A stretch of DNA of 64,000 bases from contig CBDCUM010000010.1 in assembly GCA_965222665.1 (NCBI GenBank), positions 1,640,853 to 1,704,852 of the forward strand. The letters are read 5' to 3'. Of the stretch, positions 34,227 to 53,446 are shown piece by piece (the stretch's first letter is position 1; the number at the start of each line of letters is the position of its first letter). A program made the translations under genes and the position numbers. The notes under the pieces were generated by a model. It saw only the letters and a list, made by a program, of their open reading frames with translations. It had not been told where the DNA came from and searched no databases. The DNA comes from Rhodobacterales bacterium. GTDB taxonomy: Bacteria > Pseudomonadota > Alphaproteobacteria > Rhodobacterales > CAZPXZ01.

Positions 34227-35277
34227 CCATGCGCCGCGCCGCCTGACGGCGCCATGAACCTTCCGGGCATCCGGACCCCCCGTTTGACCGAGCGCCGTCT
34301 ACGACCGCCCTGATTCCGGGGAATCACGGAGCTGGAATCATGGACCTGGCGACAGTTCCAGCAACATTGACCGGGCAGGGCAAGAATACTTGTTAGCATG
34401 AATCTCCTCGCGCATCGATCCAAGCGAAAGAGTCCAGCCTCTTTCAACCCGCCCGGGTACCTTCACACCACAATGCGAAGACCCGATTGAGAGCCTGTAA
34501 CTATTTGAGCAGCCAACCGACGCGAGGACTTTCGGCATCACGGCGCAGCCCATCGGTCCATTTCTGGACACATTCCCGTTCGAATGGGCTGCGGTGGATC
34601 CAAGGTGGCGGTGTAGACATCATTTGCCGACAGCCGCGACTGCCTGGCACGGCCTGCATCCCGCAGTCCAACGCGCACCGGACAAAGGAATCGCAGAATC
34701 GCGACCTCGAAACGGGGTTCGTCCGGGCTCGCGCTGTCGCGGATGCCCGCCAAATCGGATCAGGCGATTGCGTCCGGCAGTTGGGCCCGCGACCTCGCCA
34801 AACGCCACCGCACGTTCGATTTCGGGATATCGTAGCCAGGCAGAGCAATGCAGTTCCCGGTGCAGTCGACTGCCGGATCCGGCGGATATACGAACACGTA
34901 GCGCAACTCCATCCGATTGCCGATCCCCAGTCAGCCTGGATGAAGCCAAGCGTGATGATGCCGGCGGTCGTTTTCTCCAACACCGGCGTCCTGCCTGTGC
35001 CGACGGCCACCGCTGCCGGCGTTGTAACCGTCTTCGGGAAGCTCGCGCCTGGCGCTGCCGCAACCTCCCTTTGGGGTGGTTGACGTTCTGTCAGGTTCAG
35101 ACATCTGCGTCCAGGAAACCCTCGCGGTAAATTGCCTCGATTCGCGTGACTTCCTCATCAGTAACTACTCACTCCCTCCTGCGTCTGGCTTGAGTTCGGG
35201 GTGACTGTCGACGAGCCTCCCGGGAGGTGATTGAGCGGGGTGGTGTCTGGTTGCGGATCGCTGAAGGCGACGGGAGG

Positions 35278-35306
35278 TTGACACTCCAGCGAAATCTGAC
35301 TATGAG
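35278..35306 (+). promoter_or_regulatory. Putative sigma70 promoter for the MTase-transposase operon
   Basis: TTGACA-17 bp-TATGAG; similar in copy B (TTGACA at 47511, TAAGAG). Confidence 0.5.
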
Positions 35307-35334
35307 TGGTCATCGCTGTTGACGGGGACCACCG

Positions 35335-35994
35335 ATGGGGTGTTTCGGATCCAAGGCGACGACCGGGCTTTGTCAGGCGCTACTGGGGCTCCAGCCTCCC
35401 CACGATCTGTATATAGAGACGCATCTCGGAGGCGGTGCCCTGATGCGGCGCAAGGCCCCGGCGATGCGCAGCATCGGGATTGACCGCGATCAACGCGCGC
35501 TTGACGGGTTCAGGTGCGACTACCCGGTGGAGCTGGTACAGGGCTGTGCCCACGAGTTCCTGGCCAGCTTCCCGTTGCGGGGTACGGAACTGGTCTACAG
35601 CGATCCGCCGTATCTGCATGCGACCCGTCGGTCGGACCGGCGGTACCGCTACGAGTATACGGATGCCGACCACGCAACCCTTCTTGATCTGCTCACGGGC
35701 CTGCCGTGCCAGGTGATGGTTTCGGGACACCCCTCGGCGCTGTATGACGAGATGCTGTCGGACTGGCGCCGGGTCGCACTACAGGTGACCACCCAGGCCC
35801 AGGTCCGCACCGAGGTGGTCTGGTTCAACTTCACGCCCGAGCGGATGCACTGGGCCAGCCATGCCGGCCGGAACGCCACCGACCGTCAGCGCATCAAGCG
35901 CAAGGCGACCCGCTGGGCACAAGGCTACAAGAACCTGCCGGCGGGTGAACGTCTCGCGGTGATCTCGGCGATCATGGCGGTCGAGGCCGAGTGA
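35335..35994 (+). CDS. DNA adenine methyltransferase (small Dam/D12-like)
   Basis: FGSK, ETHLGGGA (motif I), IGID, VYSDPPY, VMVSG. Confidence 0.88.
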   Translation: MGCFGSKATTGLCQALLGLQPPHDLYIETHLGGGALMRRKAPAMRSIGIDRDQRALDGFRCDYPVELVQGCAHEFLASFPLRGTELVYSDPPYLHATRRSDRRYRYEYTDADHATLLDLLTGLPCQVMVSGHPSALYDEMLSDWRRVALQVTTQAQVRTEVVWFNFTPERMHWASHAGRNATDRQRIKRKATRWAQGYKNLPAGERLAVISAIMAVEAE

Positions 35995-37460
35995 TGGCGC
36001 GGATCAACCCGGCCTCGCTGCGCGCGCAGCTGGACGACTGCCGAGCCCGGTTCGATGCCATCAAGCAGAAGGGCGAGGCAAGCGCGGACACCCTCGCGCT
36101 GATCAATGCCCTGTTCATGCTGGTGGATATCGTGGTGGCGGTGTTCCTCGAGAAGACAACACCAAAGACCTCGCGCAACTCCAGTCTGCCGAGTTCACGG
36201 GACGGCACCGACAGCGAGACCCACACCGCGGGCAGGTCCGGATCCCGGAGCCGCGGACCGAAGGCACGCCACGCACGCTCCGACACCCTGCGCACGGTCA
36301 CCACGACGCACACCAGCCCGGTCACCGAGTGCCGGCAGTGTGGCCACGACTTGACCGGGACCGCGTGCACCGGACACGAGCAGCGCATCGAGGTCGACAT
36401 CGTCTTCGAGACCGTCGAACGTCGGGTCACCGCCGAGATCAAGGCCTGTCCGCGCTGCCAATCCCGGACCAAGGGCCGCTTCCCCGACACCATGCCCGGT
36501 CCTCTGCAGTACGGACCCGGGATCGTCGCCTATGTCGTGCACCTGCTCTGTGCCCAGATGGTCCCGCTCAAGCGGACGGCGGCCATGATCCAGGCGATGA
36601 CCGGACGGCTGCTCTCCGAGGCCACCCTGCTCGCCTTCGTCTGGCGCCTGCATCAGGCCCTGGAATCCTGGGAAGCTGCCGCCATCGACAAGCTCCTTGA
36701 CATGCCGGTGCTGCATGTCGACGAAACCTCGTTGCGCGTGGACCGCAAAAACTACTGGATCCATGTCTGTGCCGGCGGGCCCATCACCGTCAAGGGCCTG
36801 CACCGGAACCGCGGCTGTGAGGCGATCAACACCCTCGGGATCATCCCCCGATACGGGGGCCTCATCGTCCATGACTGCTGGAAACCCTATTTCACCTACA
36901 CCCAGTGCAAGCATCAACTCTGCGGCGCGCACCTGCTCAGGGAACTTCAGGCCGTGACCGACAGCAACGGCTATCCGTGGGCACGCAAAATGCACAAGCT
37001 GCTCCTCATCGCACGGCGACAGGTCATCCAACGCCCGCAACAGCGGCTGTCCATGCGCCACTACAAGCGCATCGCACGATGCTACAAGGCGATCCTCGAG
37101 CAGGGACGCACAGAGATGCCCGAAATCCCACCGCCAAAAAAAGGCCAACGCGGACCGGTCGCCAAGTCCGACGCCCATAACCTCCACCAACGCCTCGTCG
37201 TCCAGAGAAAAAACGTCCTGCGCTTTACCAGACGCGCCGACACTCCGTTCACAAATAATCGTGGCGAGCGCGACATACGTATGGCCAAGGTCAAGCAGAA
37301 GGTCTCCGGGTGCTTCCGAACCGTATCCTTCGCACACGCCTACTGTCGAATCTCGAGCTACCTCCAGACCATGGCGGCACTCGGATACAACCCCCTGGTC
37401 GCCATCAACATCGCCCTGCAGGGAAAGGCCGTCCACTGCCTCAACCAGGACACCGAATAG
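35991..37460 (+). CDS. IS66-family transposase
   Basis: SRNSSLPSS, CRQCG and CPRC zinc finger, HVDET, VHDCW, QLCGAHLLREL, TNNRGERDIR..KVKQKVSG. Confidence 0.95.
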   Translation: MMARINPASLRAQLDDCRARFDAIKQKGEASADTLALINALFMLVDIVVAVFLEKTTPKTSRNSSLPSSRDGTDSETHTAGRSGSRSRGPKARHARSDTLRTVTTTHTSPVTECRQCGHDLTGTACTGHEQRIEVDIVFETVERRVTAEIKACPRCQSRTKGRFPDTMPGPLQYGPGIVAYVVHLLCAQMVPLKRTAAMIQAMTGRLLSEATLLAFVWRLHQALESWEAAAIDKLLDMPVLHVDETSLRVDRKNYWIHVCAGGPITVKGLHRNRGCEAINTLGIIPRYGGLIVHDCWKPYFTYTQCKHQLCGAHLLRELQAVTDSNGYPWARKMHKLLLIARRQVIQRPQQRLSMRHYKRIARCYKAILEQGRTEMPEIPPPKKGQRGPVAKSDAHNLHQRLVVQRKNVLRFTRRADTPFTNNRGERDIRMAKVKQKVSGCFRTVSFAHAYCRISSYLQTMAALGYNPLVAINIALQGKAVHCLNQDTE

Positions 37461-39441
37461 CCACTCGAACCACCGGGTGAGCAGTTACCCTCATCATTCA
37501 GTTCCGCGAACTCCCTTTTCCGGCCGCGGCGCGACAGCTTGCCTCCGTTGTTGTGCAGGAACCGGAACAATAGATCGCACAGCCTCTCCGGCATATCGAC
37601 CATCAGGCTCAGCTCCGCACGGAACCGGTCATAGCGCCGCAGGAATGCGGATTCCTCAGGCAGGTCGCGTTCGACAGTGTGCTGGACGCATCCATAGAGA
37701 AACTCGGTTTGCGGTGTCGCGTCAAAGAACCGGTAGAGGTCTCCGGTATCGTTCTGCACGCGGACATTGCCGTTATCGGTCGGTTCCCAATCCACCACGG
37801 GCAGCAGTCGCCGCGAATAGTCTTCGAGTACAGCGCGATAGTCGTCAATCCGTTCCAGAATTGCCGACGATACGGGGAAGACGACACCTGGTGGATTGAA
37901 GCCTCGCCTGGCAAGGACATGGTGAATGAGGTAGCGGTGAAGCCTGCCATTGCCGTCCTCGAACGGGTGGGTATTGACCAAGCCAAAGGCGAGAGTCGAA
38001 GCTGCCACAACCGGGTCAAGTTGCGGAGCTGTCCGCTTGTCAAACGAAATCATGCCCTTCACCAGCCCTGCCAAGTCGTCAGGCCGAGCGCTGATATGGA
38101 CCGGAATCGGCATGCGAGTTTGGCGATCCCTTTCGCCAACGAAACCGCCCTCCGTGCGTAGACCGAGGCGCACGAAGCGGGCATCACCAATCATGATACG
38201 CTGCAGGCGCAACAATTCGTCGAGATCGATGGGCGGTTGACCTGCCAGTCCGATGGCTCGGCCCCATCGTTGGATTCTGTCCTGCGGCGGATGCTCGCCT
38301 TCGATGGCAAAGCTCGACCTCGAATCCTTGTGCAGCAGGACGATTGCTGTCCGCACCAACAGGTCTCTCGGGATTGCACCACTCGTTTCCTGCGCGCGCG
38401 CCTGCAAGTCCATCGCAACAAATCGCTCCATCGCATCAGTGCGAAAGACCAGCGGACAGAATTCTGGCGTACCCGGCAGGTTGTTCTTCACTCGGTGCCG
38501 CGGCGAGACTTCCGGGCGGGCTGCAAACTGGCGGTCCGGATCAAGGACGGTCGGATAGGCTCCGCGATCAGCATTCGGAAGATTAAGCCGCCGTCCGGCC
38601 AACCACTCATAGAGAAACCAGATACGCCTGGCACAGGCGCCCGTCGGCTTGGCCTTGACGAGTTCTTCGATCGGTGCGGATCCGGTCGCGAGAAACAGGC
38701 ACTTGAGGATCGCGAGATCGAGCCCCTCATACTTCAGGGCGAAGGTGAGGTGGGCCTCAAGACTGCCGCTGGGCGCATGTCGAGGCGAATTGATCCGCCA
38801 GCCGTGTTCCTCAAGCAGCTTGTGCCGTTCCCTTGTAGCGCACAGGATACGCGGTAGTGGCGCACGCAGCCCGTACGCGTCGATCAACGCAGCGTATCCG
38901 GACGGAGTGGCGGACACCGGCAGCCTTCGTTCCTGAAAAACGGTAACAGGCCCTGAAAAAAAACGATTCCGGTCAGGGATGTTCGTATCTGAACCTCTTA
39001 CTCGACTGACGCATCGCGAACGTTGCGGCATATCCATGAAAAAGAGTACTTCGGCGCGAATAGCGATAACGCTATCCCTCTTTGATGAAAAGCGATAACT
39101 GTCGGAGGCCCCAAGCGATCGAACTGCCAGGAAGGAGAATGCGTTTTCCTCTAGCGGCAGCGACGGTTGGCTGGTCTGTGCAAGAGCTCGCCGCCAATGC
39201 CGGATTCCTGACTACGGTGGTTTGATCCAGATATTTCTCGGGGGCGCGGGATATCGAAGTGCTTGACGGTGAACTTGTACAATCGACATTTGGGTCCTGA
39301 GTTTCAATTCAACTCGTGTGACTCCGGACGGCGTGAAGTGTCATCAATAGGATTCTTGTATGTTCGTCAATGTATTACACCACGCTGCGTTGCCAATCGT
39401 AGCCCACGGACATCGTCAAGTCCGATGTATTTGCCGTAAGT

Positions 39442-45963: not shown

Positions 45964-47567
45964 GTCCCGGACCCCGATCCGTCCCTGTAGCCACCCTCGC
46001 CGACGCTGCGGGAGACGATCAGCCCGGCGGTCCAGCGCGCCCCGGTCCAATCGGTGCCGAGCATGCCGGTCACGACCTCGCCGTCCAGCGTGAGCTCGCC
46101 CTCGCGGCCGTCGAAGCGCGTGACCGCGCCCCGGCCCCAGAGGGAGACCAGGTCCTCGCCGACCGTCTCCGCCGTGAGCGCGAAAGCGGAGCCGGTCAGC
46201 AGGCCGCGGTGCGTCATCGCGCGGGACTGGCGCTGCGCCTCCTCCGGGTCGGTCTCGCCCCGCAGCCAGTCGGCGAGCCGCAATGCATCGCCCCGCGTCT
46301 CCTCTTCCCGCCGTGCGTCCCGTTCCCCCTCGCTGCCAGGCTCGGAGCTTCCGCCGATCCGCTCGCCGGCGAGCGCAACCTCGACCCCGGGCTTGAGAGT
46401 CGCGCGCATCCGCCCCTCGATCGCCTCGAGCGCCTGTTCGGCCACGGTGCGCCCGAAGCGCGCGATCCACGCCTTCGGGGTCAATTCGACTTCGCGGATC
46501 GTGCCGGTTCCCTCGGCGTCGACGATCACCGCCTCCGCTGCGTTGGACAGCACCAGTGTCATCGTCTCGCGGCCTTCGTTGTGGCTGTCCGCCAGCACCG
46601 GGACTTCGACCGTCTTCAGCTTGTCGCCGGACGCGAAGGTCAGCGTGCCGCTCGTCGCGGTATAGTCGTCCCCGGCCTGTGCGGTGCCGTCGCGCGTCTC
46701 ATACCGCACCGTCACCGTCACCGTCACGTTCTCGGTGTAGGCCGGCTCCAGCACCACCTCGAAGACCAGCGGAGACGGCGTGCCGGGCGCGGTCGGCTCC
46801 TGCACCGAGGCGTCCTGCACGCTGAGCGAGGGCGGCGCCGCCATGGCGGTGTCGGTGCCTACGGCGATGCCGCTGCTAAACCCACCGGTGCCGCTCCCGG
46901 TCACGGTGAGGGTAAAGGTAAGCAGGGTGTTGTTCTGCGGCAGCGCCGAGATCGTCACCACCGTCGTGGCGCTCGCGGCGTCTTCAAACGTCACTGTCAC
47001 CCCGCTCGGCGCATTGGTCAGCGCCCAGGAGTAGGTCACATTCTTGCGCCACGGCCCGCCGCTGCCGCTTCCGTCGAGCGTCACCCTGCCCCCGGCGCTC
47101 GAAACCGCTCCGCCATCCGGCAGGGCCACCGCCGCCGGTGCGAAGGGCGCCCCCGGATTGCCCGCCAATTTCAGCGTCGTCAGCGAGATCAGCGGCTGGA
47201 GCACGTCGTCGGGAAGCGTAGTCAGACCGTTGTCTTGCAGTTCCAACTGTTTCAGAGCGGTCAGCCCGTCGAACACCCCGGGGGAAAGCGTGGTCAGACC
47301 GTTGTTGTACAGAATCAGCTTCGTCAGCGAAGTCAACCCGTCGAACACCCCGGCGGGAAGCTCGGTCAGACCGTTGTCGCGGAGTTCCAGCCGCGTAACT
47401 ACTCAATCCCTCCTGCGTATGGTTTGAGGTCGGTGTGCCTGTTGACGAGCCTCCCGGGAGGTGATTGAGCGGGTGGTGTCTGGTTGCGGATCGCTGATGG
47501 CGACGTGAGGTTGACACTCTAGCGAGATCTGACTAAGAGTGGTCATCGCTGTCGACGGGGACCACTG

Positions 47568-48227
47568 ATGGGGTATTTCGGATCCAAGGCCACGACCGGG
47601 CTCTGCCAGGCGCTACTGGGGCTCCAGCCTCCCCACGATCTGTATGTCGAGACGCATCTCGGAGGCGGTGCCCTGATGCGGCGCAAGGCCCCGGCGATGC
47701 GCAGCATCGGAATTGACCGCGATCAACGCGCGCTTGACGGGTTCCGATGCGACTACCCGGTGGAACTGGTGCATGGCTGTGCCCACGAGTTCCTGGCCCG
47801 CTTCCCGTTCCGCGGTACGGAACTGGTCTACAGCGATCCGCCGTATCTGCATGCGACCCGTCGGTCGGACCGACGGTACCGCTACGAGTATACCGATGCC
47901 GACCACGCAACCCTTCTCGAGCTGCTCACGGGCCTGCCGTGCCAAGTGATGGTCTCGGGACACCCCTCGGCGCTGTATGACGAGATGCTGTCGGACTGGC
48001 GCCGGGTCGCTCTGCAGGTGACGACCCAGGCCCAGGTCCGCACCGAGGTGGCCTGGTTCAACTTCACGCCCGAGCGGATGCACTGGGCCAGCCATGCCGG
48101 CCGGAACGCCACCGACCGTCAGCGCATCAAGCGCAAGGCCACCCGCTGGGCACAGGGCTACAAGAACCTGCCGGCGGGTGAACGTCTCGCGGTGATCTCG
48201 GCGATCATGGCGGTCGAGGCCGAGTGA
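47568..48227 (+). CDS. DNA adenine methyltransferase (copy B)
   Basis: Near-identical to 35335..35994; DPPY intact. Confidence 0.88.
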   Translation: MGYFGSKATTGLCQALLGLQPPHDLYVETHLGGGALMRRKAPAMRSIGIDRDQRALDGFRCDYPVELVHGCAHEFLARFPFRGTELVYSDPPYLHATRRSDRRYRYEYTDADHATLLELLTGLPCQVMVSGHPSALYDEMLSDWRRVALQVTTQAQVRTEVAWFNFTPERMHWASHAGRNATDRQRIKRKATRWAQGYKNLPAGERLAVISAIMAVEAE

Positions 48228-48598
48228 TGGCGCGGATCAACCAGGCCTCGCTGCGCGTGCAGCTGGACGAATGCCGAGCCCAGTTCGATGCCATCAAGCA
48301 GAAGGGCGAGGCAAGCGCGGACACCCTCGCGCTGATCAATGCCCTGTTCATGCTGGTGGATATCCTGGTGGCGGTGTTCCTTGAGAAGACAACACCAAAG
48401 ACCTCGCGCAACTCCAGTCTGCCGAGTTCACGGGACGGCACCGACGAAGGCGAGACCCACACCGCGGGCAGGTCCGGGAGCCGCGGACCGAAGGCACGCC
48501 ACGCACGCTCCGACACCCTGCGCACGGTCACCACGACGCACACCAGCCCGGTCACCGAGTGCCGGCAGTGCGGCCACGACCTGACCGGGACCGCGTGC

Positions 48599-50937
48599 CT
48601 TTCATTTAGACACAGTTAACACGGTTGTTCGATTGGCGCATATTCCGGGCATGCAAATCGGGCTTCGACATTTCCGTTCCGCGACGATCGACTGGCTGAT
48701 CGGTGCGGTTGCGGCAGAGGGTGGCACGCGCCATGGGCTTGCGCGCGAGCTTTGCGAACGGGAGAACTGGCGCAATCCGCGGGGCGTTGCGTGTCTGGCG
48801 CAGGCGAGCAAGGCGCTGCCGCGGCTGGCGGCCCGGCTGAACCTGTCGTTGCCCGCGGCGCGGCCGATGCCGTCGCTACCGGTTGCCGCGGAGAGGGCGT
48901 TCCCGGACCTGACGCTGACCTGCCGGCTTGCGGAGCTCGGCGTGGTGACGCTGGAGCCTGTCGGCGACGCCGACCGCGGTCTGTGGCGGGCGATGATGGC
49001 GAGCCATCATCCCGAGGGAAGTTCGCGAATGCCGGGTGCCCAGCTTCGCCATTGGGTCCGGTCTTCGGTTCACGGCAGGCTTGGCGGGATCGGGTTCTGT
49101 GCCGCAAGCTGGCACCAGAAGGCGCGCGATGCGTTCCTTGGCTGGTCGCCCGACGCACGGGTTGCGAATCTCGGGCTTGTAGTCAATAACGACCGTTATC
49201 TTCTGTTGCCCGGGGTACGGGTCGACAACCTGGCGTCGCATGTGCTGGCGCTGGCGGCGGCCCGCGTTGCGGACGACTGGGAAGCAGCGTATGGGGTAAG
49301 GCCGTTGGCGGCCTATACCTACGTGGCTCCCGACCGGCTCGGAACCTGCTACCGGGCCGCAGGCTGGAAGTGTTGTGCGGCGCGAACCTCGGGATGTCCG
49401 CCCGGGCGGCGCGCGGTCGCGCCGAAAGCGGTATGGATCAAGCCGTTGGCCGCGGGATGGCGCGAGAGATTGTGCCAGGAACCACACCGCAGGCTTGGCG
49501 CGGCACCGACGCCGCATGTGCCGAAGGATACGGACTGGGCCGATATCGAGTACCGGCGCGGCAGCCATCCCGACGGCCGCCTGCGTGACCGGGTGGTGGC
49601 GATGGGCCGGGCGTGGGAACATGCCCCGGGTGCGTCGCTGCCGGCGATCTTCCCCGGCGCGGCGGAACAAAAGGCCGCCTATCGGCTGCTCTCGAACGAC
49701 AGGATCAAGATGGAGCATATTCTTCAACCCCATCAAGAGGCTACGGTCGACCGCTGCCGGCTGGAACCGGTGGTTCTCGCGCTCCAGGACACAACGACCC
49801 TCAACTACAACGGCCACCAGAAGACGGCGGGTCTGGTCAATCTCGGCGGCGGCGGATCGGGAACCTGGGGCTTGCTCGCCCATGTCGGGCTTGCAGTCAC
49901 CGAAGCCCGACGCCCGCTCGGAGTGTTCGAAATCAACGCGACACAGCGCGACGGCACGCTGGCCGCCGAAACGCCGGACAACGTGCCGGAAAGCGTGCGC
50001 TGGCTGCGCGGCCTTGAGCGCGCCGGGCAGATCGCGGCAGCCTGTCCCGACAGCCGCGTGATTACGGTCTGTGATCGCGAAGGAGACATATGGGACCTGT
50101 TGCAAACGGCACGGCAGACCGGCAACGGGCTCGTGGTGCGTTCCGACCGCGGCCGCCAGCGCCGGGTCGCCGTCGACGGCGGCACCCGTGAGTTGTGGGA
50201 CTTCATGGATGGGCAACCGGTTCTGGGCACAAAGACCATCACCATCAGCCCCTATGGTGGTCCCCGCAAGCGCCGCGAACGCAAGGCCCGGCTTGAACTC
50301 CGTGCCGCGATGGTCGACCTCGTTCCACCGTCGAACAGGGCCGGCGACGAAGCACCGCTCGCCATGCTTGCCGTCTCGGTCCTCGAACCCGAACCGCCGA
50401 AAGGCAAGATGCCGCTCCACTGGGTGCTCCTCACCACCGAGGGCGAGGCCGAAATCGACAATGCCCGGCGCGTCGTCGCATGGTACGAAGCACGCTGGAC
50501 CATCGAGGAATACTTCCGGATCCTCAAGGTCGGCACTCGGGTCGAGGATCGCAAACTCGATCACGCCGACGATCTGCGCAAGTGCCTCGCATTCGATGCC
50601 GTGACCGCATGGCGTGTCATGGACCTGGAACGACGCGCCCGCGACACGCCAGACATGCAGGCACTCAAAATGTTCTCCGAACACGAGATCAACGTGCTCT
50701 ACGTCTGGCTCAAACACCGCCGTGTCATTCGCGCTCCACCCGAAACGCCCCCGGATATCCGAACCTTCGTGGTCGACCTCGCTCGCCTCGCCGGATTCCG
50801 TCCCAGCAAGCGGCAACCGCTCCCCGGAACCGAAAAAATCTGGCAGGCATGGAGAAGCTACAAGGAAGGTCTCGATGCCGTCAATGCATGGGAGAAACGA
50901 TCAGACGATAACCGTGTCAACAGTGGGTAGTTGAAAG
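48599..50937 (+). mobile_element. Complete DUF4338-IS50-like element (copy 5)
   Basis: TIRs CTTTCATTTAGACACAGTTAACACGGTT and AACCGTGTCAACAGTGGGTAGTTGAAAG; 9-bp TSD ACCGCGTGC, single in the empty site at 36360-36368. Confidence 0.96.
48651..50930 (+). CDS. DUF4338/DruA-like domain fused to IS50-type transposase
   Basis: MQIG start at 48651 matches the paralogues; DDE motifs intact. Confidence 0.93.
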   Translation: MQIGLRHFRSATIDWLIGAVAAEGGTRHGLARELCERENWRNPRGVACLAQASKALPRLAARLNLSLPAARPMPSLPVAAERAFPDLTLTCRLAELGVVTLEPVGDADRGLWRAMMASHHPEGSSRMPGAQLRHWVRSSVHGRLGGIGFCAASWHQKARDAFLGWSPDARVANLGLVVNNDRYLLLPGVRVDNLASHVLALAAARVADDWEAAYGVRPLAAYTYVAPDRLGTCYRAAGWKCCAARTSGCPPGRRAVAPKAVWIKPLAAGWRERLCQEPHRRLGAAPTPHVPKDTDWADIEYRRGSHPDGRLRDRVVAMGRAWEHAPGASLPAIFPGAAEQKAAYRLLSNDRIKMEHILQPHQEATVDRCRLEPVVLALQDTTTLNYNGHQKTAGLVNLGGGGSGTWGLLAHVGLAVTEARRPLGVFEINATQRDGTLAAETPDNVPESVRWLRGLERAGQIAAACPDSRVITVCDREGDIWDLLQTARQTGNGLVVRSDRGRQRRVAVDGGTRELWDFMDGQPVLGTKTITISPYGGPRKRRERKARLELRAAMVDLVPPSNRAGDEAPLAMLAVSVLEPEPPKGKMPLHWVLLTTEGEAEIDNARRVVAWYEARWTIEEYFRILKVGTRVEDRKLDHADDLRKCLAFDAVTAWRVMDLERRARDTPDMQALKMFSEHEINVLYVWLKHRRVIRAPPETPPDIRTFVVDLARLAGFRPSKRQPLPGTEKIWQAWRSYKEGLDAVNAWEKRSDDNRVNSG

Positions 50938-51259
50938 ACCGCGTGCACCGGACACGAGCAGCGCATCGAGGTCGACATCGTCTTCGAGACCGTCGAACGT
51001 CGGGTCACCGCCGAGATCAAGGCCTGTCCGCGCTGCCACACCCGGACCAAGGGCCGTTTCCCCGACACCATGCCCGGTCCTCTGCAGTACGGACCCGGGA
51101 TCGTCGCCTATGTCGTGCACCTGCTCTGTGCCCAGATGGTCCCGCTCAAGCGGACTGCGGCCATGATCCAGGCGATGACCGGACGGCTGCTCTCCGAGGC
51201 CACCCTGCTCGCCTTCGTCTGGCGCCTGCATCAGGCCCTGGAATGCTTGTATGACGAGA

Positions 51260-51580
51260 CACAGCAAGAAGAGAGGAAAGAGTTATCAACAACTCCTTCC
51301 CGGCGGCCTGGCGGGGGAAAACGTGTTTACGAGGGCTCTTCGCTGTTGGCTGCGCGGGTTTTTGCTTATCCTCTTGCTTGAGTTTCCGGGTCCGCTTGCG
51401 CTGACTGAGCGCGGTGGACCGGAAAGCGCGGAGCGACGGCTTTGCGCGAAGGTGGGCCGGACCGTGGAATCCTTGGAACAGTACCGTTTCCCAGCTTGGT
51501 CGACCCACCTTCCTTTGTTCCCGGCGTCCTGGATGGGATGCAAGGGTTGGACCCGTATCATCGCAAGATTAGGAGCGAGG
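51260..51580 (+). ncRNA. Putative bridge RNA (boundaries approximate)
   Basis: Stem AAGGTGGG/CCCACCTT encloses TGGAATCCT (51465-51473) and TTCCCAG (51488-51494), matching both strands of the target; a second loop has donor-like segments. Confidence 0.75.
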
Positions 51581-51585
51581 GAACG

Positions 51586-52536
51586 ATGACGACTACAGTA
51601 GTTGCTGGCCTCGATGTTGGCAAGGATGAGGTTCACGTGCATGCGAATGGGCTGGGGCGCAGTTACGCCAATGTTCCCGCGGGCTTCCGCGGCTTGCGGA
51701 ACTGGCTGTCGCAACAGGGCGTCCAGCGTGTGGTGATGGAGCCGACGGGCCGCTATCACCGGCGCGTCCACCAATCCCTGGCGGCGGCCGGATTTGAGGT
51801 TGTGGTGATCAATCCCCTGCGCAGCCGGCGCTTCGGCGAGTCGCTGTTCGGACCGGCGAAGACGGACCGGATTGACGCGGCGATGCTGTCCCGGCTCGGG
51901 GCCGCGATGCCGGATCTGAGGGTCGCAAAGCCCAGAGATGGCTATGAGGAAGAGCTTGAGGGGCTTCTGGTTGCTCGCAGCTGCCTTGTCGATGTTCGGA
52001 CCAAAGTGAAGCAGACCGCCGACGAGGTGAGCGGCCGCGGCGAGAAGCATCTGCGAAAGGTGGGTGCCACGACCGACAAGCGCATCGCGGATCTGGATGC
52101 GGCGATCCTCGCGCATATCCAGTCGGACCCGGAATGGGCCAGGCGCTATGGAATCTTGTTGTCGATCCCAGGCATCGGGCCTGTCAACGCGGCCCAGCTT
52201 CTCTGCTGGATGCCGGAACTTGGCTCCATCCGGAACCGCCAGGCCGCCAGCCTGCTGGGGGTGGCGCCGTTCGACAAGGACAGCGGCAAGAGCCGAGGCG
52301 CCCGCCATATTGCCGGAGGCCGGCGTCGTCCGCGCGATGGCATGTACATGGCGGCGACATGCGCCGCCATCCACAACCCGGATATGAAAATCGTCTCGGA
52401 TCGCCTGAAGGGGGCCGGCAAGAAGCACAAGGTTGTCATCGTCGCCATCATGCGGAAGCTCGTGATTCTGGCCAATGTGCTTCTCCGGGATGGACGCCAC
52501 TGGACGCCGGAAGCCTCTGCATCAGCCCGAGGATAA
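51586..52536 (+). CDS. IS110-family DEDD recombinase
   Basis: GLDVGK, VMEPTG, AKTDRIDA, SIPGIGP, DSG; purine-rich RBS before ATG 51586. Confidence 0.95.
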   Translation: MTTTVVAGLDVGKDEVHVHANGLGRSYANVPAGFRGLRNWLSQQGVQRVVMEPTGRYHRRVHQSLAAAGFEVVVINPLRSRRFGESLFGPAKTDRIDAAMLSRLGAAMPDLRVAKPRDGYEEELEGLLVARSCLVDVRTKVKQTADEVSGRGEKHLRKVGATTDKRIADLDAAILAHIQSDPEWARRYGILLSIPGIGPVNAAQLLCWMPELGSIRNRQAASLLGVAPFDKDSGKSRGARHIAGGRRRPRDGMYMAATCAAIHNPDMKIVSDRLKGAGKKHKVVIVAIMRKLVILANVLLRDGRHWTPEASASARG

Positions 52537-53446
52537 GTCGTGGAAAAGCTGTGGAAAACACGGGAGGGGCGCATGCCCGGAAGCACCAAAGGGGCCTGAA
52601 TCGGGCTTGACTGCAAACATAGATGCTGGGAAGCTGCCGCCATCGACAAGCTCCTTGACATGCTGGTGCTGCATGTCGACGAAACCTCGTTGCGCGTGGA
52701 CCGGAAAAACTACTGGATCCATGTCTGTGCCGGCGGGCCCATCACCGTCAAGGGCCTGCACCGGAACCGCGGCTGTGAGGCGATCAACTCCCTCGGGATC
52801 ATCCCCCGATACCGGGGCCTCATCGTCCATGACTGCTGGAAAGCCTATCTCACCTACACCCAGTGCAAGCATCAACTCTGCGGCGCGCACCTGCTCCGGG
52901 AACTTCAGGCCGTGACCGACAGCAACGGCTATCCGTGGGCACGCAAAATGCACAAGCGGCTGCTCATCGCACGGCGACAGGTCATCCAACGCCCGCAACA
53001 GCGGCTGTCCATGCGACACTACAAGCGCATCGCACGATGCTACAAGGCGATCCTCGAGCAGGGACGCTCGGAGATGCCCGAAATCCCGCCGCCAAAAAAG
53101 GGCCAACGCGGTCCGGTCGCCAAGTCCGACGCCCATAACCTCCACCAACGCCTCGTCGTCCAGAGAAAGAACGTCCTGCACTTTACCAGGCGCGCCGACA
53201 CTCCGTTCACAAACAATCGTAGCGAGCGCGACATACGCATGGCCAAGGTCAAGCAGAAGGTCTCCGGGTGCTTCCGAACCGTATCCTTCGCACACGCCTA
53301 CTGTCGAATCTCGAGCTACCTCCAGACCATGGCGGCACTCGGATACAACCCCCTGGTCGCCATCACCATCGCCCTGCAGGGAAAGGCCGTCCACTGCCTC
53401 AACCAGGACACCGAATAACCACTCAAACCACCGGGTGAGCAGTTAC

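Follow-up and report, generated by a model that had tools for sequence, protein, structure and literature searches.

An IS66-family insertion sequence subgroup with a Dam-like methylase gene and a conserved promoter ahead of its transposase

Why should an insertion sequence (IS) encode a DNA methylase? Insertion sequences are normally defined by transposition functions only, and the methylation that controls IS10 and IS50 is that of the host. The question is raised by a 64,000-nucleotide stretch of a Rhodobacterales genome (assembly GCA_965222665.1, contig CBDCUM010000010.1, positions 1,640,853 to 1,704,852, forward strand; hereafter the window). The unit at 35161-37488 of the window is a 2328-bp IS66-family insertion sequence, bounded by terminal inverted repeats and holding two plus-strand open reading frames (ORFs), the first for a homologue of Dam-type adenine methylases and the second for the transposase. 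The account favoured here, at slightly less than even likelihood, is that the methylase gene and its promoter would constitute a portable, self-regulated module that couples transposase expression to the level of the methylase, as comparison among related loci suggests.

The element is delimited by the following features, given in window positions.

35153..35160, no strand: left copy of the 8-bp target-site duplication, CCTCATCA, by sequence reading
35161..35190, plus strand: left terminal inverted repeat, starting GTAACTACTCAC, from a 30-nt inverted-repeat pair, 70% complementary
35335..35994, plus strand: ORF1, 219 amino acids, a Dam-like homologue of N6-adenine DNA methylases in which the Dam recognition domain is missing, from the ORF, profiles and predicted structure
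35991..37460, plus strand: ORF2, a 489-amino-acid IS66-family DDE transposase (PF03050, NF033517)
37459..37488, minus strand: right terminal inverted repeat, from the same 30-nt pair, 70% complementary
37489..37496, no strand: right copy of the 8-bp duplication, CCTCATCA, by sequence reading

Members of the IS66 family have ends starting GTAA and an 8-bp target duplication, and the canonical form carries tnpA and tnpB upstream of the transposase; the ISBst12 group comprises IS66 relatives with the transposase alone. The window element shares with the family, and with its ISBst12-like branch as generally defined, an IS66-type DDE transposase (PF03050 at 2.5e-42; NF033517 at 244 bits, cut-off 180), GTAA ends, the 8-bp duplication and, with that branch, the absence of tnpA and tnpB. 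It is unlike the canonical form in that absence, and unlike the ISBst12-like branch in possessing a second conserved ORF as its first gene, the Dam-like methylase, with a conserved promoter of its own. The outermost 12 nt of the two ends, GTAACTaCTCAC and GTAACTgCTCAC, match at 11 of 12 positions, and the short form of the ends of this type of element is GTAACTACTC. Between them there is room for two ORFs only, and ORF1 has no match to any TnpB_IS66 model. The ORF1 stop codon TGA (35992-35994) overlaps the ORF2 starts GTG at 35991 and ATG at 35994. An earlier note, made from these letters, had described a repeat- and duplication-bounded unit of 2328 bp that holds only a 219-residue DPPY methyltransferase (DPPY at residues 90-93) and a transposase, joined by the stop/start overlap GTGATG; both parts of that description hold.

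In the 8.85-Mb genome to which the window belongs (12 contigs), 17 full-length copies of the element share 96-100% identity, and interrupted copies are present in addition. Perfect 8-bp duplications, each of a different sequence, flank 11 of the 17; flank reading gave one mismatch or a one-base shift at four others and no duplication at two. The methylase ORF is 219 amino acids long in 16 copies, the 17th having an indel that retains an open 234-codon frame, and the transposase is full length in 15, with two frameshifted to 237 amino acids. Because of this number of full-length copies, their perfect duplications and their mostly intact ORFs, the window element is a recently active insertion sequence. 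The same genome also holds a 69%-identical relative of the same element type, which spans both genes (G000:C10:284348-286455). In four metatranscriptome runs, which belong to two studies, the element is covered by contigs of about 92% identity, and single RNA-library contigs span the methylase-transposase junction, for example over 35449-37309 and 35440-37488; these are a weak hint of expression, as contigs do not prove one transcript and may reflect DNA carry-over. One RNA-library contig of run X2 (depth 4.1), from a relative of the element, joins 37488 to 35161 through eight other letters. A circular form or a tandem junction would look like this, with a spacer as long as the duplication; the contig is a single one of low depth.

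The pairing of the two genes extends well beyond this genome. A metagenome scan with an 11-sequence methylase alignment as query returned 553 relatives, the best 80 of which were retained for locus analysis. At 61 of the 70 loci with at least 400 nt downstream, a window-type transposase lies on the same strand no more than 300 nt downstream. Two of the remaining nine begin other IS66-type transposases (L108, L129), and two are interrupted by an IS21-type insertion, judged by reading the translated sequence (L075, L076). In L104 a 429-amino-acid DDE_Tnp_1-type (non-IS66) transposase overlaps the methylase stop by 4 nt. The methylase is followed in L105 (1050-2645) by a 532-amino-acid ORF without family match, in L095 (4164-5027) by an Ogg-HhH glycosylase-like ORF (2.6e-16) and in L084 by an unrelated binding protein; the downstream region of L067 has no assignment. 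The L104 unit (86-2046), whose methylase belongs, as do those of L095 and L105, to the transposon clade described below and has the consensus promoter, occupies a single 2.1-kb metagenome contig. The transposase is complete at 50 of the metagenome loci; at 42 of these a pair of ends encloses 2230-2303 bp that include both genes, and the end consensus read from the listed ends is GTAACTACTCRCCCC; perfect 8-bp duplications were seen at 6 of 41 loci, repeat flanks in metagenome assemblies being often chimeric. A consistent position of the methylase inside the terminal repeats of other copies, the point on which the earlier note had staked its proposal, is therefore found in metagenomes, and it is found as well, with ends and 8-bp duplications, in other genomes and lineages.

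Chance adjacency of an orphan methylase and an IS66 transposase, or an artefact of assembly, is excluded by the 17 near-identical full-length copies with differing duplications and by the recurrence of the pairing at the metagenome loci, within ends at most of them; only the weak Pfam score of ORF1 spoke for it.

Species-representative genomes encode a methylase relative at 16 loci. A window-type transposase lies just downstream at six of these (L021, L028, L029, L031, L033, L035), and the element at L035 has ends GTAACTACTCGCCCCC and duplication TCCTTTTC. Eight further loci come from one alphaproteobacterial assembly (L023-L027, with full-length methylase matches, and L032 and L034, with partial ones) and from another alphaproteobacterial genome (L022). 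At L023 the gene after the methylase encodes a TnpC of the classical IS66 type, with PF03050 matched at 8.8e-77 and the IS66 C-terminal element also present. L025 (3876-7087) and L027 define an element of 3212 bp, bounded by ends GTAAGCGGTTAAA and flanked by 8-bp duplications; on the opposite strand of L025 it encodes TnpB_IS66 (1.4e-29) and a weak helix-turn-helix tnpA-like ORF. The layout of L025 is convergent, with the methylase and tnpC directed inward from the left end and the tnpA-like ORF and TnpB_IS66 inward from the right, and at least five full-length loci of this type occur in one alphaproteobacterial assembly. Since L025 carries the methylase alongside TnpB_IS66, the methylase is not a simple replacement of tnpA/tnpB: the suggestion that it sits where those genes normally lie stands for the window lineage, where it is the first gene and tnpA and tnpB are absent, but not for this other lineage. 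Among 55 pairs of methylase and downstream ORF, the gap is mostly -4 to +25 nt, and by this arrangement the two genes appear to form an operon. In a sample of 401 genomes of the same class, 9 (the window's included) have a methylase match at an E-value of 1e-10 or below, and only three others in that sample carry full-length matches, at 62-76% identity, two of them in multiple copies; so few, multi-copy carriers are the patchy spread expected of an insertion sequence.

The first gene product is a distant member of the Dam family. ORF1 matches no Pfam family at an E-value of 0.01 or below; it scores 13.8 bits against PF02086 (cut-off 22) and 21.5 bits against TIGR00571 'dam' (cut-off 114.85), both matches being confined to residues 82-154. 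A comparison with DpnM from the Protein Data Bank gave an E-value of 0.021 with motif I and DPPY both in the alignment, and the phrog_56 'DNA methyltransferase' profile matched residues 65-217 at 7e-21. A protein search found 3368 relatives at an E-value of 1e-3 or below among 3707 candidates, the best 120 of them 183-267 amino acids long, mostly 219-225; among representatives of 50%-identity clusters, 6019 reached 1e-3 or below and 524 of these 1e-30 or below. Pipelines annotate the relatives as 'DNA adenine methylase'. In 60 diverse homologues G5, H23, D90, P91, P92, H113, G178 and R184 are invariant, and K7, Y26, E28, G32, G34 and Y93 nearly so. The ratio of non-synonymous to synonymous substitution rates (dN/dS) is 0.12 against a second, interrupted copy in the window, 0.22 against a 97% copy and 0.1-0.3 against diverged copies. 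With the catalytic motifs kept, these ratios indicate that the methylase is under purifying selection.

An AlphaFold model built from the 60-homologue alignment reached a predicted local distance difference test (pLDDT) score of 91 and a predicted template modelling (pTM) score of 0.85. Its residues 1-167 superpose on E. coli Dam with Z 17.8 and a root-mean-square deviation (rmsd) of 2.5 over 149 residues; T4 Dam follows at Z 17.6 and DpnM at 16.9, and the next-best structures, which are methylases acting on substrates other than DNA, reach at most 14.1. ORF1 resembles these three enzymes in its catalytic fold (Z 16.9-17.8, rmsd 2.1-3.4, 149-155 residues), an N-terminal GxK, a glycine-rich motif I and DPPY, and differs from them in lacking their recognition domain of about 100 residues and in adding a 40-residue helical hairpin. 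The 167 residues of the model stretch over Dam 7-270, about 150 of them aligned and the recognition domain skipped, and only about 35 residues separate IGIDRD from DPPY; because of this span, ORF1 is, by the model, a Dam catalytic core without the recognition domain. Of the traits of D12-class methylases it thus shows the catalytic fold with S-adenosylmethionine (AdoMet) motif and DPPY, and lacks both qualifying scores on curated profiles and, between the AdoMet motifs and DPPY, a helical domain for target recognition. The remark that so short a protein leaves little room for a target-recognition domain agrees with the model. At the C-terminal end, two conserved basic helices (181-199 and 203-218) matched nothing; the hairpin that they are predicted to form (181-218) might contact DNA. 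Prediction of a methylase homodimer scored 0.33 against a mark of 0.42.

Such a protein could have lost catalysis and serve as a DNA-binding or transposase-assisting factor in the stead of TnpA/TnpB, as its place in the window lineage, the missing recognition domain and the sub-threshold Pfam and NCBIfam Dam scores would allow. That idea is very unlikely: DPPY and the glycine-rich AdoMet motif are invariant or nearly so in the 60 homologues, free-standing plasmid and phage genes included, the methylase co-occurs with TnpB_IS66 and a weak tnpA-like ORF in one lineage, and its association with unrelated transposases argues against a specific protein partner.

How loosely the two genes are bound in evolution is seen from the 55 pairs. 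Identity of the methylase to that of the window is 62-76% whatever the transposase, and that of the transposase is 50-55% in most pairs, 33% in G006, 32% in L113 and 23% in L023 and L025; neither L104 nor L105 has a downstream ORF that matches IS66. At 76%, the G006 methylase is the closest of all despite a transposase at 33%; its 2431-bp element has ends GTAACTACCCAGGT and 8-bp duplications in two of three copies examined, and L113 is flanked by a perfect duplication and has ends of its own. In four IS66 lineages, with transposase identities as low as 23-52%, the methylase is enclosed by ends and 8-bp duplications. In a maximum-likelihood tree of 47 methylases (LG+C20), all 23 that precede a transposase (for L105, the 532-amino-acid ORF) form one clade, supported at 100/100 on a long stem, outside which fall three plasmid genes (upf31.0 of IncP-1 plasmids included), one P2-like prophage gene and 20 representatives. 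Pairs with mixed transposases stand inside the clade, each at 100/98: WIN with L150, L023 with L039 and L104 with L035. Because of the single clade and these mixed pairs, the tree is read as probably recording one capture into transposons, then repeated exchange among at least four IS66 lineages and once to a non-IS66 DDE transposase.

What has travelled with the methylase is its promoter. DNA upstream of the methylase start was aligned across transposase types (89 loci, 79 distinct sequences), and 88 of the 89 have a TTGACN box at a distance of 40-100 nt from that start. The profile of the 79 distinct sequences is CTTGACAnCATAGnnnnnnnnnnCTATGnT, and 61 of them fit the full pattern TTGACAnCATAG-N10-CTATGnT. 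Column conservation is 100% for TTGAC, 96% for the next A, 97-98% for T-A-G and 94-98% for C-T-A, with ten variable bases between. TATGCT, 17 nt past the -35 box, is by its spacing the -10 box. The half-sites of CATAG-N10-CTATG are inverted relative to each other and are located between the -35 and -10 boxes, the right one overlapping the latter. They vary together: a left CGTAG is paired with a right CTACG in 6 of 9 cases, versus 7 of 69 when the left has the A form, and the 351 of 395 matched half-site positions were reached by none of 2000 pairing shuffles. The same promoter precedes the methylase in every methylase-bearing lineage examined.

In the window the site lies as follows.

35278..35306, plus strand: promoter-like site, TTGACA and TATGAG 17 nt apart, with the methylase ATG 57 nt further on, from the alignment and profile

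This promoter is homologous to that of the family and atypical, reading TTGACAcTCCAG-N10-CTATGAG. Two stand-alone plasmid methylase genes have a promoter with the same inverted-repeat layout as the transposon genes: a Xanthomonas plasmid homologue with CATAG-N10-CTATG, and upf31.0 of IncP-1 with TTGACAgCATCG-N10-CGATGCT, a compensatory change in both arms, and with a second CATCG-N10-CGATG read further upstream. The layout was not seen before a Methylomonas plasmid gene or the prophage gene. Since the site accompanies methylase genes with or without a transposase, the methylase is the likeliest protein to act on it, and would do so by binding the half-sites or methylating their adenines. Self-regulated methylase genes, such as ccrM and M.SsoII, have an operator, or a site of methylation, within the promoter that drives them; here too the promoter holds a conserved symmetric site, weakened in the window copies. 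The earlier note had suggested that the enzyme might regulate the element's own ends; a conserved inverted repeat does exist, but in the operon promoter and not at the ends, which points to control of expression. In 39 elements taken together, CATAG/CTATG occurs elsewhere 232 times where 143.6 would be expected, and a second peak lies 1600-1800 nt into the element. This peak was considered as a second operator and rejected, all of its CTATG lying in tyrosine-codon contexts (for example P-R-Y-G-G) and not in inverted repeats.

The favoured account assumes that the methylase is catalytically active. It would bind the promoter repeat, or methylate the adenines of the repeat, and so shut down its own promoter; because the transposase would be read from the same message, its synthesis would track the methylase level or the methylation state. 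An element that enters a methylase-free cell would thus have high transposase output, which would fall as the methylase builds up or copies multiply, and the module would give any transposase an arrival burst together with a copy-number restraint acting in trans. For the window lineage, it is speculative that decay of the left half-site and the -10 box has loosened this control, which fits its at least 17 copies. A bolder form of the idea, a real but minor possibility, holds that methylase and operator-bearing promoter are an epigenetic switch traded among transposons, with an arrival burst followed by dose-dependent silencing, and that the enzyme, stripped of Dam's recognition domain, may recognise a very short motif or be nearly non-specific, so that the host methylome is rewritten according to IS copy number.

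Several observations weigh against self-regulation by the methylase, beginning with the fact that the loop is read from sequence for every family member. The counts of half-site covariation come from related sequences, which overstates their independence, the conservation of the right half-site is partly just that of the -10 box, and the half-sites lie 15 bp apart centre to centre, not the usual same-face spacing of a dimer. The window promoter is off consensus (TCCAG for CATAG; TATGAG for TATGCT), and a scan of 35100-37560 for consensus sigma-70-like promoters and terminators gave no site of either kind, the promoter being missed because its -10 box ends in G; the window lineage multiplied nonetheless, so its expression may come from elsewhere. 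The methylase is also dispensable in cis, as is learned from genome G275, in which an abundant transposase of this clade has no methylase. This protein, 52% identical to the window's and with the same right end (180 first-look candidates; L146, L155, L160), has a 139-codon in-frame N-terminal extension in the place of the methylase; its promoter is homologous with the half-sites absent, and its genome retains methylase remnants. As for the tree, its bootstrap was not fully settled (correlation 0.984), and the genomic context of the 20 'rep' outgroup rows is unassigned.

The same half-sites could instead serve a Dam-type sensor of replication, supplied by the element itself, as many hosts have no suitable enzyme: the element would mark its own ends or promoter, and only hemimethylated copies, just replicated or just transferred, would be active. 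The Dam-family fold, the precedent of IS10, IS50 and IS903 (in the part available of PMC9296519) and the two promoter half-sites, which contain adenines, face opposite ways and in one case overlap the -10 box, are in keeping with this. It is nevertheless decidedly unlikely, as a comparison of the terminal repeats of different lineages found no adenine motif in common (GTAACTAC... versus GTAAGCGGTT...), no single adenine is common to the half-site variants CATAG, CGTAG and CATCG, and the internal CTATG excess is accounted for by tyrosine codons.

Another answer to the opening question looks to the stand-alone members of the family. As a gene of its own, the methylase occurs on 157 plasmid records, all below 60% identity, 127 of them conjugative and upf31.0 of IncP-1 among them, and P2-like phages and one prophage carry a homologue at 43-47% identity. 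These plasmid and P2-like phage proteins resemble the transposon-borne ones in identity (43-53%), length (about 220-236 amino acids) and the same C-terminal basic helices, and differ in having no transposase linkage and in falling outside the transposase-linked clade. A limited look-up of the literature found no description of the function of upf31.0.

From this distribution the methylase might be a protective passenger, a cargo that shields the carrier replicon (chromosome, plasmid or phage vector) from restriction, the benefit keeping the element while transposition is unaffected. Protection on entry is the usual reading for phage and plasmid methylases, and phage methylases as anti-restriction factors are discussed in the parts available of PMC9296519 and PMC11410982. 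The abundant methylase-less transposase variant of genome G275 fits a dispensable cargo, and so does the second copy in the window, which keeps an intact methylase beside a dead transposase. That copy is now in three pieces.

47395..48598, plus strand: piece 1, with the left end, the intact methylase gene (47568-48227) and the 5' part of the transposase, by genome match
50937..51247, plus strand: piece 2, element positions 1199-1509, by genome match
52623..53446, plus strand: piece 3, element positions 1505-2328 with the right end, by genome match

Its methylase differs from the first in 7 of 219 residues (20 synonymous and 7 non-synonymous changes), and no target duplication was found on its flanks. 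The report of an intact methylase and a broken transposase at 47395 was correct, but the break is due to two nested insertions (48599-50936 and 51248-52622) and not to point decay. On the other side, a chromosomal insertion sequence at 17 copies gains little from extra methylase genes, and cargo is not expected to come first and to overlap the transposase start in four IS66 lineages. The transposase-linked methylases moreover form a single clade that excludes those of plasmids and phages, which suggests specialisation. The passenger account is thus possible without being probable, is better supported than the replication sensor or the catalytically dead accessory, and is compatible with self-regulation by the methylase.

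Set against what is known, self-regulation of a transposon by its own methylase has partial precedents. In the part available of PMC9296519, host Dam methylation of transposase promoters is described as restraining IS10, IS50 and IS903. The element proposed here would be like these in using adenine methylation at the transposase promoter as a brake on transposition, and unlike them in that the enzyme is encoded by the element and the candidate site is CATAG-N10-CTATG, instead of a host housekeeping enzyme acting at GATC. Giant-virus mariner elements encode a methylase and an endonuclease (Bao and Jurka 2013, PMC3627910); in the text available, the authors ask whether the methylase controls transposition or protects, and knew of no earlier case. 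These mariners are like the window element in encoding a DNA methylase on a transposon; as far as that text goes, they are unlike it in belonging to eukaryotic viruses, in their restriction-modification-like gene pair, in their unrelated methylases (C5, Methyltransf_26) and in having no endonuclease-free operon with the transposase.

A literature search found no description of an IS66-family element with a DNA methylase (ISfinder and REBASE were outside its coverage, and an entry may exist there), none of a shuffled methylase gene of a single clade and none of the promoter inverted repeat; the available text of PMC9296519 (supplements included), PMC11410982 and PMC3925955 contains no link between IS66 and a methylase. 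The parts themselves are familiar, the transposase being of IS66 type and the methylase of the Dam family, and what appears new here is their pairing as an IS subgroup, the shuffled methylase clade and the promoter repeat. The nearest plasmid-borne transposases are IS66 members of Bacillus and Anoxybacillus, at 34-35% identity to the window's, which is less than 60% identical to each of 222 matched plasmid records.

An environmentally widespread IS66 subgroup, to judge from the metagenome relatives, thus encodes its own Dam-like enzyme within the transposase operon. One methylase gene with a conserved promoter across deeply diverged transposases would be a testable epigenetic writer for regulation or protection, and a candidate regulatory site can be assigned to the upf31.0-type methylase genes of conjugative plasmids. 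As a natural, minimal Dam catalytic core of 219 amino acids, the predicted enzyme would, through its specificity, help explain how DNA is read by adenine methylases, and it is a possible tool.

The insertions nested in the second copy are of other kinds. That at 48599-50936 is a 2338-bp element with the 10-bp duplication GACCGCGTGC on its flanks, encoding a 765-amino-acid protein in which DruA/DUF4338 (2.4e-20) is combined with Tnp_DNA_bind and a weakly matched DDE_Tnp_1 domain. The earlier note had taken DUF4338 fusions for candidate DNA-modifying enzymes; the DruA fusion is real, but no sign of DNA modification was seen here. The insertion at 51248-52622 has 1375 bp with ATGCT on either side and a 364-amino-acid ORF, by eye an IS110-type transposase.

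Two further features lie in or beside the window element.

35216..35227, no strand: perfect 12-bp palindrome CCTCCCGGGAGG in the 5' leader, kept in the second copy, by sequence reading
37497..39037, minus strand: Fic-domain gene, struck near its 3' end by the insertion, from the ORF list, a family match and a frame check

The palindrome lies within a leader segment of about 60 nt that is absent from most relatives. The Fic ORF now continues into the element as far as 37358, with about the last 20 codons lost. A 75-amino-acid ORF at 34931-35158 was considered as the continuation of the gene and ruled out by frame arithmetic; beyond the insertion, the Fic frame goes on for 20 codons to a stop.

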